A stretch of DNA of 64,000 nt from Fidelibacterota bacterium (GCA_018002295.1 JAGNGI010000004.1:3345-67344); one strand, 5' to 3'; shown: positions 24,277 to 43,506, counted from the first letter of the stretch. Numbers and translations are program-made. Notes: generated by a model not told the origin, from the letters alone.

Positions 24277-26124
24277 TTGAAAAACGCGACAGAAAATCAA
24301 GTCCCAAAAGGCAAATTTTCACTGGCAAGAGGATTGCTTGTCATCGGAATAGTAGCTGGGATTTGTTTGAGTGACAACCTCTCAGATAGAACATACTGGA
24401 CTTACGATGCTATCTGGTATCAAATATTCCCAGAGCGCTTTAGGAACGGTGATCCGACTAATGATCCAACGATTGAAACGCTAAAAGGCACCTGGCCATA
24501 TGAACCTCAAACGCAATGGAGCATTATGCCCTGGACTGCTGATTGGTATAAACTCCAGCCTTGGGAAAAATCCAACCAACGCGACTTTTACTATAATGCT
24601 CAATTGCGTCGTTATGGCGGTGATATCGAGGGAATAATTGATAAACTCGATTATCTTGTAGATTTAGGAATCAATGCAATTTATTTGAATCCAGTCTTTG
24701 AATCGGCTTCGTCGCATAAATACGGTGCTACAATGTATCATCATATTGATAATAATTTTGGGCCTGATCCGGCTGGTGATATAGCAATTTGGCAAACTGA
24801 AAATCCTAATGATCCTTTGACCTGGCAGTGGACTTCCGCTGATAAATTATTTCTGAAACTAATACAGGAGGTGCATACCCGTCAAATGAAAATAATCATT
24901 GATGGAGTATTCAATCATGTTGGCATACCTTTCTGGGCTTTTCAGGACGTCAAAAAAAATGGAGAAGCCAGTCCATACGCCGATTGGTTTGTGATAGAGT
25001 TCTTTGATGATCCGAGTACAATCGAAGATGAATTTGAATATCAAGGCTGGAATGGAATTCCGGATTTACCGGAGATCTGGGAAGACGAGAATGGTCCTGT
25101 ACAAGGATTTCGGGCGCATATAAAAGCCGTGGTTGAAAGATGGGGTGATCCAAATGGTGATGGCGATCCGTCGGACGGGATTGACGGCTGGCGATTGGAT
25201 GTGGCTGAGAAGGTCAGTAAAAATTTCTGGCGTGATTTTCGCAAATGGGTGAAAAGCATAAATCCCGAGGCATATTTAACTGGTGAAATATGGTGGGAAG
25301 ATTTTATGAATAATAAGATGTTCGATGCTTCACCATGGTTGCAGGGCGATATTTTTGACGGCGTGATGAATTATCGTTTCGGCGATGCTATGCTTAAAGC
25401 CTTTGTTGACAGAGAAATGAGGATAAAACCATCCGAGCTTGATCAATTATTAGGCGATATTAGAGAAAAATATCCGCTACCCGCTCAATATCAACTGCAA
25501 AATATAATTGGTAGTCACGATAATGAGCGTTTTGCCAGTATGTTATTAAATCCAGACCGCTGGATCGATCACGGTGGCAATCTGGTTTACAATAAAGATT
25601 TTAAGATAAACCGTCCTTCGGATGAGCTCCGACAAATCCAAAAGACAATTCTTGTTTTTCAATTTACTTATATCGGAGCACCTTATATTTATTATGGCGA
25701 TGAAGTGGGGATGTGGGGAGCAGATGATCCCGACAATCGAAAACCAATGGTTTGGGATGATATGCAATATGAACCGGAGACTACTCATCCATTTGGAATA
25801 AAGAGACCTGTAGATTCCGTTAAAGTTGATACAGATTTGTTCAATTTCTATAAATCTGTAATAAATCTCAGAAAAAATCATGAATGTCTAAGAAGAGGCA
25901 GGTATAAAACAATATTGACTGACGACAAAAGGGGGATTTTCGGATTTGAGCGTAAATATGATACTGAGACCATCTACATCTTTGCAAATTTGAATGATAA
26001 ACCTATCAAAATGAGCGAGATAAATTTTGATGTCACAAAATGCGAAAAGATTTTTACAGTTAATACCGATACAAATTATCTCGGGTCGAAAGGAATAGTA
26101 GTTTATAAAATTATTAAAGGGTAA
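24277..26124 (+). CDS. GH13 alpha-amylase-family enzyme (neopullulanase/cyclomaltodextrinase-like), exported
   Basis: GH13 regions I (IIDGVFNHVG), II (GWRLDVAEKV), III (GEIWWED) and IV (IGSHDNERF). N-terminal hydrophobic segment. TTG start. Confidence 0.8.
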   Translation: MKNATENQVPKGKFSLARGLLVIGIVAGICLSDNLSDRTYWTYDAIWYQIFPERFRNGDPTNDPTIETLKGTWPYEPQTQWSIMPWTADWYKLQPWEKSNQRDFYYNAQLRRYGGDIEGIIDKLDYLVDLGINAIYLNPVFESASSHKYGATMYHHIDNNFGPDPAGDIAIWQTENPNDPLTWQWTSADKLFLKLIQEVHTRQMKIIIDGVFNHVGIPFWAFQDVKKNGEASPYADWFVIEFFDDPSTIEDEFEYQGWNGIPDLPEIWEDENGPVQGFRAHIKAVVERWGDPNGDGDPSDGIDGWRLDVAEKVSKNFWRDFRKWVKSINPEAYLTGEIWWEDFMNNKMFDASPWLQGDIFDGVMNYRFGDAMLKAFVDREMRIKPSELDQLLGDIREKYPLPAQYQLQNIIGSHDNERFASMLLNPDRWIDHGGNLVYNKDFKINRPSDELRQIQKTILVFQFTYIGAPYIYYGDEVGMWGADDPDNRKPMVWDDMQYEPETTHPFGIKRPVDSVKVDTDLFNFYKSVINLRKNHECLRRGRYKTILTDDKRGIFGFERKYDTETIYIFANLNDKPIKMSEINFDVTKCEKIFTVNTDTNYLGSKGIVVYKIIKG

Positions 26125-26169
26125 TTGTCTTTGATAAAATCAATAAATCAAATTCAATTGAGGTAAAGG

Positions 26170-40580: not shown

Positions 40581-43506
40581 TAACCACCTTAACAAAATTT
40601 TATACAAAGTAGGCGCGCTATGCCTGATGTTTTTTAGTACCCAAATTCTAATCGCTCAGGTGGTTTACTCTAATCCGCCTCATCCGACCGAACGGGATTC
40701 GATCATAATTTACTTCGATGCCGCTAAAGGCGACGGCGGTTTGAAAGATTTCACAGGCGATGTTTATGCGCATACCGGTGTTATTACTAATTTAAGCGCA
40801 ACCGCCAAAGACTGGCGCTATGTCATCACCCCCTGGCCTGGGCAAGGTGGTACAGCTAATACTTCGAAAAATAAACTCGAGAGAATTTCAACCAACTTGT
40901 ACAAACTGACGATCGGCTTCCCGCGTACTTTTTACATTTCTCATGAAAATGGCGCAACTATTCCCGATGGCGAAAAAATTCTCAAATTAGCCTTCGTCTT
41001 CCGCAATGCTGATGGCAGTAAGAGTGGGAGGGATGTTGGTGGAGCCGACATTTTCCAAAACTTATTTGAAGTAGGATTGACGGTAATTGTCAGCGAACCC
41101 GTCATTGATTTAAGCCTATCTGACCCGCGTCGCTCACCTGTTTTTACGAATTATGGCGATACGGTAAACATAAAAATTACCACAGCCGCTCTCAATACTA
41201 AGGTTAGTGTCATAAAACTATTAGTTAATCATGAGTTAATCAATCAGGTCACTGACACTGTGATGAGTTTTGACTTTGTGGCAGAGGAATATAATTATGG
41301 AATGAATAATCTAATGGCGATTGGTACTGACACGAGTGGATTCAGCGATACCGCCAGTTTTGCGATTATGATAAATCCACCGCTGACGTCTATTTCTCGA
41401 CCCGAAGGTATTGTTGACGGTATCAATGTGCTAAATAACAACAGCATTACCCTTTCACTCCAAGCGCCTTTTAAGGATTTCGTCTATCTGATTGGCGACT
41501 TTAATGATTGGCTGGTTGACACGAGCTATTTTATGCAATGCGAAGACAACGGCGGAACCGACGTGCATTGGTGGCTGACCATTGACGATCTCGATTCACA
41601 GACCGAATATGCTTTCCAATACTTTGTTGATGGTGAAATCCGCCTGGCGGATCCCTATTCCGAAAAAATTCTGGATCCATGGAATGATGACTCTATTTCA
41701 GCATCCGTCTATCCCAATCTGAAACCTTATCCAGCTGGAAAAACGGCGGAAATCGTCGGCACTTTTCAAATTGACCAACCCAAATATAATTGGCAAACCG
41801 CGGATTACACTCGTCCGGAAAAAACCAACCTGATCATTTATGAGATGCTAATCCGGGATTTTATTGACGCGCATGATTTTAAAACTTTGATTGATACGTT
41901 GGATTATTTACAGCGACTGGGTATTAACGCCATAGAATTAATGCCGGTTAGTGAATTTGAAGGCAATTCATCCTGGGGCTACAACCCGTCATTTTATTTC
42001 GCTGTGGATAAGTATTACGGACCGGCAGATGACTTTAAACACTTTGTAGATGAATGTCATCGGCGCGGCATAGCCGTCATTCAGGACATTGTACTGAATC
42101 ATTCCTACGACTCGTCGCCGCTGGTACGGCTTTATTGGGACAAGGTAAATAGCCGACCATCGTCAGAAAATCCTTGGTATAATCAGGTCTCGCCGAATCC
42201 CGTTTACTCCTGGGGTTATGATTTTAACCATGAAAGTCAGGATACCAAGAATTTCGTTGATCGGGTTACGGCCTACTGGTTGACTAATTTTAAAATTGAC
42301 GGCTTTCGTCTAGATTTTACGAAGGGTTTCACCAATAAACCTGGCGAAGGTTCGGCTTGTGACTCCAGCCGGATTACCATTTTGAAACGTATCGCCGATA
42401 AAATATGGGAAATTGATACCAGCGCTTATGTTATTCTCGAACATTTCGCGGATAATAGTGAGGAGAAAATCCTGGCTGATTATGGTATGATGCTCTGGGG
42501 AAATTCAAATTGGAATTATGCCCAATCATCAATGGGTTATACTAATGAATCCGATTTCTCGTGGGGTTTTTATAAAAGTCGTTCTTGGAACCAACCGCAT
42601 CTAGTCACCTATATGGAAAGTCATGACGAAGAACGCCTGATGTACAAAAACCTAACCTGGGGCAATTCTGCTGGCTCTTACAATATTAAAACTTTGACCA
42701 CAGCGCTCGAGCGGATTAAAATGACAGTCGCGTTTTTCCTGACTTTACCGGGGCCGAAAATGCTCTGGCAATTTGGCGAACTGGGATATGATTACTCCAT
42801 TGAATATAATGGTCGTCTGGGAAAGAAACCGATTCGCTGGAATTACTATCAGGAGCCAGATCGCTTACGGTTGTATAAAACTTTCCAGGCTTTGATAAAA
42901 CTAAGGTCGGAAAATGACGTCTTTACCAGCGCCAGCACCACGCCAATTATGACACTGAGCGGCAATGTCAAGAGCATTACGATGAGCGGCAGTAATCTGA
43001 ATGTAGTTATCATCGGCAACTTTGGAGTTGTTAATGCTGAGACTGCAGTTTCTTTTCAACATGGTGGCGTCTGGTACGATTATTTCTCCGGAGAAAGCTT
43101 CAATTTTAGCGGATTTGATTCGATAAACCTGGCGCCGGGAGAATTTCACATTTACACCGATAAAAAGTTGTTAACGCCCGAAGAAGGATTGGTTGCTATA
43201 GCTGAAGCCGACGCAAACAATTTACCTAAACAGTTCCATGTCTATCCGAACTATCCCAATCCATTCAATTCATTAACGACCCTGGAATATGATTTGGAAA
43301 AGATTTCGGATGTTACGATGAAAATTTTCGACCTCCTCGGTAGGGAAATTTATACTGAAAAAATAGGTAGCCAAGCTCCTGGAAAATACCGTTTTGTCTG
43401 GAATGGCTTTGATAAAAACGGTAGGGAAGTCCATTCGGGAGTTTATTTCGTTGTGGTTCAACGTAACGGCGACCGGCAAATTCAAAAAATAACTCTGCTG
43501 AAGTAA
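40574..43506 (+). CDS. GH13 enzyme (pullulanase/amylase type with E-set/CBM48-like module) carrying T9SS C-terminal sorting domain
   Basis: ATG overlaps the stop of the previous gene (ATGATTAA). Signal peptide. Ig-like module (FKDFVYLIGDFNDW…YAFQYFVDGE). GH13 regions I (IQDIVLNHS), II (GFRLDFTKGF), III (ILEHF) and IV (YMESHDEER). C-terminus NYPNPFNSLTTLEYDL…MKIFDLLGREI…SGVYFVVVQ…ITLLK is a T9SS CTD. Confidence 0.75.

Follow-up and report, generated by a model that had tools for sequence, protein, structure and literature searches.

A candidate alpha-glucan utilisation locus with a SusD-independent outer-membrane module in a Marinimicrobia (Fidelibacterota) bacterium

A 64-kb stretch of DNA from a Fidelibacterota bacterium (GCA_018002295.1, JAGNGI010000004.1:3345-67344), referred to here as the window, contains at positions 24277-43506 a block of nine genes that run in one direction with short or overlapping junctions. 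On balance, these genes appear to constitute a locus through which a Marinimicrobia (Fidelibacterota) bacterium uses alpha-glucans (starch, glycogen, pullulan or maltodextrin), built on an outer-membrane module that is independent of SusD. The module comprises a TonB-dependent receptor (TBDR), a protein of 1303 residues, named BIG here, and an outer-membrane barrel of the PorV/PorQ family. The pairing of the TBDR with BIG is the key novelty, and was not singled out in an earlier, preliminary description of this DNA.

The nine locus proteins were scanned with Pfam and NCBIfam models, and are listed below in gene order. Type IX secretion system (T9SS) cargo is recognised by its C-terminal domain (CTD).

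24277-26124, + strand: GH13a, 615 aa; PF00128, 188 bits; NF041090 and NF008051, ~234 bits, under their equivalog cut-offs
26170-28968, + strand: TBDR, 932 aa; carboxypeptidase-regulatory domain, plug and barrel
28965-32876, + strand: BIG, 1303 aa; signal peptide, outside every curated family
32887-33900, + strand: PorV/PorQ-family outer-membrane beta-barrel, 337 aa; NF033709, 188.5 bits (cut-off 90), residues 28-337
33923-35974, + strand: T9SS type A cargo protein, 683 aa; TIGR04183, 35 bits (cut-off 23); PF18962, 34.9 bits (cut-off 27)
36049-37881, + strand: SSS symporter, 610 aa; PF00474, 128 bits
37903-38736, + strand: TrmB-family sugar-sensing regulator, 277 aa; PF01978, 68.8 bits (cut-off 25.6); PF11495, 33.4 bits (cut-off 22.2)
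38760-40580, + strand: GH13b, 606 aa; PF00128, 138 bits; GH2_N-like sugar-binding N-domain
40573-43506, + strand: GH13c, 977 aa; PF00128, 91 bits; partial TreZ/GlgB/pullulanase-like matches; type A CTD

The three GH13 enzymes, the TBDR with its carboxypeptidase-regulatory domain, the SSS symporter, the TrmB helix-turn-helix regulator and the PorV/PorQ-like barrel that had been named in the preliminary description were all recovered by these searches, both TrmB models scoring above, and the barrel model well above, cut-off. A TonB-dependent transporter (TBDT), degradative enzymes, an inner-membrane transporter and a regulator are thus found co-directionally within 19 kb, which is the composition of a carbohydrate utilisation containing TBDT (CUT) locus. 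No match to SusD/RagB (PF07980, PF12741, PF12771, PF14322) was obtained among the nine proteins, and no SusD match was present in the Pfam-annotated neighbourhoods of nine related loci.

Conservation of the receptor, BIG and barrel genes

One genome per species was covered by a pattern scan, which returned 260 genomes with a relative, and the best 80 loci were analysed by calling open reading frames (ORFs) and scoring these against the nine window proteins; the fractions given here count loci with enough flanking sequence, and the taxon labels of metagenome-assembled genomes (MAGs) are as deposited. The 80 loci are labelled Marinimicrobia/Fidelibacterota, KSB1, Calditrichia, Ignavibacteria and Gemmatimonadota, among others, and the genome closest to the window, at 92% identity, is a Candidatus Neomarinimicrobiota MAG (L004). 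A TBDR gene stands immediately 5' of BIG in 64 of 65 loci, the sole exception being an assembly break, and in the window the TBDR stop codon overlaps the BIG start codon (ATGA). For the barrel gene, the distance 3' of BIG is at most 400 nt in 70/73 loci and at most 1.4 kb in the remaining three, and a homologue of the 683-aa protein is next after the barrel in 51/56. The GH13, SSS and TrmB genes differ among loci in both presence and position. The earlier view that these genes act as one unit is thus supported, as far as sequence evidence goes, by a core that is collinear in loci from several Fibrobacteres-Chlorobi-Bacteroidetes (FCB) phyla.

The KSB1 and Gemmatimonadota versions carry LacI as the regulator, together with a GH77 or GDE-type enzyme. 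A xylan version, in one Zhuqueibacterota locus, consists of CBM9-CTD, TBDR, BIG, PorV-like barrel, GH10-CTD, GH10 and SSS genes, and an SSS gene is found repeatedly among related loci for alpha-glucan and xylan. More distant BIG loci of the alpha-glucan type encode CBM20-CTD and GH31-CTD proteins, an ABC importer and TrmB, and two distant loci have no assignable substrate. Single MAGs hold three to four BIG paralogs, and a tandem set is found in a Calditrichaeota MAG (L094 1-14772; GCA_003818595.1, RPQV01000010.1), in the order TBDR, BIG (1150 aa), PorV-like barrel, TBDR, BIG (1129 aa), TBDR. To judge from gene content, the cassette is not starch-specific: the TBDR-BIG-barrel trio is reused with GH10 xylanases and occurs in several copies per genome, in the manner of polysaccharide utilisation loci (PULs). 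A second, paralogous TBDR is encoded a few kb 3' of the alpha-glucan cassette in a marine Marinimicrobia MAG (L031 20102-23627), where the N-terminal part of a diverged paralog of BIG follows directly 3' at the locus end; a second TBDR a few kb downstream of the cassette is also seen in L033, L038 and L066.

The receptor resembles SusC in part. Against the SusC model TIGR04056 it scores 72 bits (cut-off 368), over profile positions 2-210 only, which cover the N-terminal domain and plug; by this comparison the N-terminal domain and plug are SusC-like and the barrel is non-SusC. Orthologues of the TBDR match PF25183 (OMP_b-brl_4), the model of Oar-like barrels. The adjacent PorV/PorQ-family protein falls below the equivalog cut-offs for PorQ (NF033711, 130 bits against 220), PorV (NF033710, 56 against 250) and PorV2 (61 against 325), and matches no PorP/SprF family model in Pfam or NCBIfam. 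On these scores it is nearer to PorQ than to PorV and is the equivalog of neither.

The BIG protein and its C-terminal domain

BIG may be divided into three parts on the basis of conservation:

residues 29-860 (29049-31544, + strand): conserved core
residues 861-1195: variable region
residues 1196-1303 (32550-32873, + strand): variant T9SS CTD

Identity across the family is 33-63% in the core, falls to ~30% in residues 861-1195 even among orthologues, and is 42-66% in the last 108 residues, which are conserved in some paralogs only. More than 2,400 homologues were word-indexed, every one of them named 'hypothetical', and by an exhaustive search (E<=1e-3) the superfamily comprises 1,693 clusters at 50% identity. 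Among Pfam and NCBIfam models none matches BIG above cut-off, a sub-threshold CHU_C hit at the C-terminal end being the only one, and direct sequence searches of the PDB with BIG and with the barrel returned no match. Neither BIG nor the TBDR-BIG-barrel cassette is described in Pfam, NCBIfam or the literature searched, subscription journals being outside its scope.

An AlphaFold model of residues 29-880, built from 64 diverse sequences, is almost entirely beta (pLDDT 88.3, pTM 0.84). It replaced a first model of residues 29-1228 from 30 close homologues, which was poor (pLDDT 61, pTM 0.39) and in Foldseek matched generic FN3 arrays only. By the later model and its sequence, BIG contains a galactose-mutarotase-like supersandwich, an FN3 domain and duplicated DNDGD-type acidic modules. 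The duplication is visible in the gene as a direct repeat of 168 nt (30392-30559 and 31490-31657, 71% identity), each copy encoding an acidic, Ca-binding-like module, DNDGDW..DVG.DGKPGTNDYGE.DG.PT.EPNF; one module lies within the conserved core and the other at the start of the variable region. The preliminary description had named a SusD-like tetratricopeptide repeat (TPR) fold in the 1303-aa protein as one finding that would overturn its reading. Such a fold is rejected on the all-beta model of the core, and that reading therefore survives the check.

The best structural neighbours of the model are all carbohydrate-active enzymes (CAZymes), from GH15, GH94, GH65, GH149, GH161, GH174 and PL families, and the core has many invariant Asp, Glu and Trp residues. 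It might be supposed that BIG is itself an undescribed surface-anchored CAZyme, a hydrolase, lyase or phosphorylase-like enzyme, and that the TBDR merely imports its products. This is considered improbable. No Foldseek match reaches E<=1e-3, the similarities are limited to the non-catalytic beta-supersandwich N-domain of these enzymes, and the model contains no recognisable catalytic domain, including an (alpha/alpha)6 barrel. Many of the conserved acidic residues sit inside DxDxDG-type Ca-binding motifs, and one conserved core is shared by alpha-glucan, xylan and unassigned loci, which makes a substrate-specific catalytic site in BIG less likely.

The C-terminus provides an indication of how BIG might be held at the cell surface. 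It reads VVPNPY...GRGERRIEF...GVYYYIIES...GKLAVIK, and the consensus of the variant CTD over the last ~100 residues is VVPNPY..A...E.PLPP.ITSGRGER.I.F.HLP...IFT..G..V.TL......G...WNLK...NLD.A.GVYFY.VES..G.K.GKLAIIK. Among 22 members with this CTD, the best NCBIfam matches are to the C-terminus of PorZ (21/22) and of PorU (16/22), followed by type A (16/22). The matches to the type A model TIGR04183 are all sub-threshold (best E 1.8e-4), so that BIG is not of type A. Nor is it of type B, since TIGR04131 is found in 1/22, PF13585 (CHU_C) stays below cut-off (sub-threshold in 19/22) and the neighbouring barrel is not of the PorP/SprF family. Membership of the CTD superfamily is nevertheless indicated by hhalign, which aligns the BIG CTD profile with the type A CTD profile at 97% probability (E 1e-10, 65 columns). 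By these comparisons BIG ends in a divergent CTD of the T9SS kind, nearest to the CTDs that PorZ and PorU retain, in a class distinct from types A, B and C. BIG was rejected as a PorZ or PorU orthologue, the match being confined to the last ~65 residues. The earlier proposal that the three large proteins share one T9SS sorting domain thus holds for the 683-aa and 977-aa proteins, which are of type A, and fails for the 1303-aa protein, whose divergent CTD lies below the curated cut-offs. The CTDs of PorZ and PorU are uncleaved and stay bound to PorQ and PorV, and type B cargo is held by adjacent PorP/SprF barrels (PMC10202324).

The variant CTD is present in 113 of the top 150 BIG representatives, and an ordinary type A CTD in ~16. 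In all seven distinct variant-CTD neighbourhoods that were examined, BIG is preceded by a TBDR gene and followed by a PorV-like gene (7/7), and the two type A-CTD paralogs that were looked up stand alone (L084 10001-13288 and L091 212-3541; 33-35% identity), with no TBDR, PorV-like barrel or CAZymes nearby. Thus variant CTD, barrel and TBDR travel together.

Two alternatives to a TBDR that is served by BIG can be considered in the light of these results. One is that the TBDR works by itself, as in proteobacterial CUT loci such as that of Caulobacter MalA, and that BIG and the barrel form a co-transcribed adhesin or polymer tether for starch granules or particles, with no role in loading the transporter. 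SusD-less uptake of sugars by TBDTs is established in Proteobacteria, MalA being a maltodextrin transporter of this type, type A-CTD paralogs of BIG occur away from any TBDR, and FN3 domains and Ca-binding-type repeats such as those of BIG are typical of adhesins. This alternative is nevertheless unlikely: the adjacency of TBDR and BIG is near-absolute across phyla and substrates, with genes that often overlap or are tightly spaced, tandem TBDR-BIG pairs mirror SusC/D pairs, and the variant CTD is present exactly where the TBDR is. The other is that the receptor is an exporter, which moves BIG across the outer membrane without T9SS, after which the PorQ-like barrel anchors it. The Myxococcus Oar transporter reportedly exports the protease PopC, and the match of orthologous TBDRs to the Oar-like model PF25183, the strict pairing of the two genes and the failure of the BIG CTD to reach curated T9SS thresholds could be understood in this way. 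Export by the TBDR would leave the locus with no other outer-membrane import route for the oligosaccharides that periplasmic GH13 enzymes and an SSS symporter imply; the BIG CTD is homologous to T9SS CTDs, closest to those of PorZ/PorU, and type A paralogs of BIG use an ordinary T9SS signal. This second alternative is regarded as highly improbable.

Enzymes, regulation and surroundings of the locus

The GH13 motifs DGVFNH, GWRLDV and IIGSHD were located and regions I, II and IV are readable in the enzymes at the level of motifs. GH13a is probably a neopullulanase-, cyclomaltodextrinase- or maltodextrin-glucosidase-like enzyme with a SusA-like role, and both GH13a and GH13b are probably periplasmic, since each has a signal peptide and lacks a CTD. 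GH13c carries a type A CTD by both models (TIGR04183, 36.2 bits, cut-off 23; PF18962, 28.8 bits, cut-off 27), which suggests a surface or secreted alpha-glucan endo-hydrolase with a SusG-like role. The SSS symporter is presumed to be the inner-membrane sugar importer.

Twelve of 23 orthologues of the 683-aa protein contain a CBM20 domain (PF00686, best E 4.7e-13), and the N-terminus of the family profile matches the CBM20 structures 1ac0, 8x8k and 7czj at E 0.004-0.04. The window copy gives no direct PF00686 match, being too diverged for one. Because the family carries N-terminal CBM20-type starch-binding domains, the 683-aa protein is likely to be a CBM20-type surface glycan binder with a SusE/F-like role. 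The preliminary description had held that the locus lacks both SusD and lipoprotein analogues of SusE, SusF and SusG. The absence of SusD stands. Functional analogues of SusE/F and SusG would be present in T9SS-anchored form, given the CBM20-type 683-aa protein. The signal peptides of GH13a and GH13b end in Cys, and their orthologues vary between a canonical lipobox and an ordinary signal peptidase site; lipidation of these two enzymes is therefore possible, and the claim that the locus has no lipoprotein is uncertain.

Features of likely regulatory significance lie at the start and in the middle of the locus:

24217-24245, + strand: sigma-70-like promoter, TTGACT-17-TATATT, 10/12 matches, upstream of the first gene
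24255-24274, + strand: candidate TrmB operator, GTAACTCAGATTAGAACTAC, directly 3' of the promoter
35984-36016, + strand: 15-bp GC-rich hairpin followed by a T-run, in the gap between the genes for the 683-aa CTD protein and the SSS symporter, the latter starting 32 nt further on

In L004 (92% identical) the sequence is conserved from ~24205 on and not further upstream. The TrmB-family protein is far below cut-off for the archaeal equivalog models (86 bits against 650). A palindrome, GTAACTCA-N4-TGAGTTAC, is its candidate operator: with no more than two mismatches it is found at 38 sites in 1.39 Mb of related loci, as against 0-2 in shuffles, and nearly all sites are intergenic, 10-60 nt upstream of GH13a, TBDR, CTD-protein or TrmB genes. 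TrmB-bearing relatives have clear palindromes, such as GTAACTCATATGTGAGTTAC, at the position occupied in the window by GTAACTCAGATTAGAACTAC, and it is this conservation of position that supports the window site. The conserved palindrome at the locus promoters supports the TrmB control proposed earlier. A search for sites upstream of 24277, 26170, 36049 and 38760 had been suggested; the window has a single site, before 24277, and none before the other three, and relatives carry further operator-like sites before CTD-protein and TrmB genes.

The hairpin at 35984-36016 is probably a partial terminator or RNA-stability element, and may attenuate or stabilise the transcript. A separate promoter for the SSS-TrmB-GH13 half of the locus was considered and set aside, as only 32 nt separate the hairpin from the SSS gene and no shared motif was found.

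The surroundings are those of an ordinary chromosome, the scanned flanks containing housekeeping genes (IF-2, PNPase), a transfer-messenger RNA (tmRNA), Rnf genes and a downstream arabinose cluster:

11274-11349, + strand: tRNA gene
13636-13989, - strand: tmRNA gene, 185 bits
14148-20665, + strand: operon for an Rnf-type ion-translocating complex, upstream of the locus
22626-23393, - strand: divergent gene upstream of the locus, a response regulator receiver fused to a weak AHJR-like restriction-endonuclease-fold domain
23745-23766: terminator upstream of the locus
43982-44632, + strand: IS200-like Y1 transposase ORF just 3' of the locus, broken by a low-complexity DSR/TDT repeat; mobile-element remnant
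45472-46269, - strand: IS3-type integrase (rve) ORF just 3' of the locus; mobile-element remnant
46721-49687, + strand: T9SS type A cargo protein of 988 aa, whose domains are CotH kinase-like, lamin-tail and chitobiase-C-like; no relation to starch
49862-56745, + strand: probable L-arabinose cluster, with aldose 1-epimerase, a second SSS symporter, FGGY kinase, class II aldolase/epimerase and L-arabinose isomerase

Together with the 683-aa protein and GH13c, the 988-aa cargo brings the type A CTD proteins of the window to three. The non-coding, GC-richer interval between the terminator and the promoter (23880-24165) is not shared with L004; a search of Rfam gave no match to it, and its folding does not exceed that of shuffles (z-score 0.36), so that an RNA in these GC-rich 270 nt is unsupported.

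Proposed mechanism and relation to known systems

A scheme for the locus can be inferred from the findings above on protein families, gene order and conservation, on the classes of CTD and of fold, and on the enrichment of the operator. GH13c and the CBM20-type 683-aa protein would cross the inner membrane by Sec, be exported by T9SS via their type A CTDs, and bind and cut polymer at the cell surface. BIG would likewise be a T9SS substrate, whose PorZ/PorU-like CTD stays on and lodges in the locus-encoded PorQ-like barrel, in line with the way in which PorQ holds PorZ and PorP/SprF barrels hold type B cargo. The barrel would thereby anchor BIG beside the TBDR encoded just upstream. As the surface partner, BIG would capture oligosaccharides and pass them to the TBDR for TonB-powered import, the job that SusD performs for SusC. 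Periplasmic GH13a and GH13b could then trim the oligosaccharides, and the SSS symporter would move the products into the cytoplasm. The TrmB-family protein is predicted to bind the GTAACTCA-N4-TGAGTTAC site at 24255-24274 and thereby repress the locus, a sugar inducer bringing about its release.

More broadly, it is tentatively suggested, with a confidence a little short of even, that the TBDR, BIG and PorQ-like barrel form a second, SusD-independent 'utilisome' in non-Bacteroidota FCB phyla (Marinimicrobia, KSB1, Calditrichota, Ignavibacteriota, Gemmatimonadota and Zhuqueibacterota). Here a ~130-kDa beta-protein, delivered by T9SS and held in the barrel by its uncleaved CTD, would be stably complexed with the TBDR and load its substrate, and single genomes would have come to carry many paralogs of the system, each specific for its substrate, in parallel with the diversification of SusC/D in Bacteroidota.

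Several points weigh against this scheme. The role of BIG is drawn solely from position, fold class and analogy, with no ligand site identified, and a supersandwich fold alone does not prove sugar binding. The BIG CTD is under every curated CTD threshold (CHU_C 20-24 bits, cut-off 27). T9SS is inferred to be present because CTDs occur, and none of its core machinery genes (SprA/Sov, PorK/L/M/N, PorU) was seen within the 64-kb window. The lone type A-CTD paralogs show that the BIG core can work without a TBDR, and the second BIG of the tandem set in L094 has no barrel gene directly 3'. The window operator is degenerate, with three mismatches to the palindrome, and 16 of 100 window shuffles give at least one such match. 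Finally, the hairpin at 35984-36016 makes co-transcription of the four downstream genes uncertain, and the block may be one operon or two.

The locus has much in common with the Sus system and PULs of Bacteroidota. Both bring together, in a locus under common control (presumed here), a TonB-dependent importer with a carboxypeptidase-regulatory N-domain, a large surface partner whose gene follows at once downstream, surface starch binders (here probably of CBM20 type), a surface GH13, periplasmic GH13 enzymes, a sugar transporter of the inner membrane and a regulator of their own, and both occur in multiple and tandem copies per genome with differing enzyme sets. However, the locus lacks the two defining components, there being no SusD (a TPR lipoprotein) and no SusC-family barrel. 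The partner is instead an all-beta protein of 1,300 residues, and the surface parts are attached by T9SS CTDs and a dedicated PorQ-like barrel, whereas those of Sus are attached by lipidation. Control lies with TrmB or LacI where Sus-like loci use SusR or a hybrid two-component system, an SSS (or ABC) transporter takes the place of MFS in import, and the hosts are non-Bacteroidota FCB phyla.

A predicted retained CTD and an adjacent cognate PorV-like barrel gene are features shared with the T9SS cargo-barrel pairs PorZ-PorQ and PorU-PorV and with type B cargo and its PorP/SprF barrels, such as SprB-SprF. In the present case, however, the barrel is neither a PorQ/PorV equivalog nor PorP/SprF, the CTD class is distinct from A, B and C, and BIG is tied to a nutrient TBDR, not to the secretion machinery or a gliding apparatus. 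Proteobacterial CUT loci (Xanthomonas SuxA, Caulobacter MalA) similarly place glycoside hydrolases, a transporter of the inner membrane and a regulator beside a SusD-less TBDT in one locus, but without an obligatory giant surface partner, a PorV-like barrel or T9SS-anchored enzymes. The regulator resembles archaeal TrmB/TrmBL1 (Thermococcales, Halobacterium) in having a winged-helix domain and the start of a sugar-binding effector domain, in being encoded inside a maltodextrin/alpha-glucan locus and in having a palindromic candidate operator at the promoter. It differs in being bacterial, in its length of 277 aa, which is shorter, and in scoring far below the equivalog cut-offs, and the operator sequence is unlike the archaeal TrmB motifs, as far as these are known.

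SAR406 genomes have been reported to carry many Por CTD proteins (10.1101/095471), and the genome paper on Caldithrix describes growth of C. abyssi on starch (PMC5317091); the cassette is present in a Caldithrix MAG (L078). Neither paper mentions a TBDR-BIG-barrel module, and beyond the SAR406 remark no description of T9SS in Marinimicrobia was found in the literature searched, which excluded subscription journals.

The SusC/SusD pair, the signature by which polysaccharide utilisation loci are found, is not known outside Bacteroidota. In oceans, sediments and soils, abundant groups include Marinimicrobia (SAR406), KSB1, Calditrichota, Ignavibacteriota and Gemmatimonadota, which are mostly uncultured and encode many T9SS-tagged glycoside hydrolases; the route by which they take up the products is not known to have been established. 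If the reading given here is true, the conserved TBDR-BIG-barrel cassette would be a searchable marker for PUL-like loci in non-Bacteroidota FCB phyla, and would add a new case of a dedicated PorV-like barrel that retains T9SS cargo. The work also predicts a bacterial TrmB operator. It further makes testable the question of whether the partner of a TonB-dependent transporter can be something other than a SusD-like protein or a lipoprotein.

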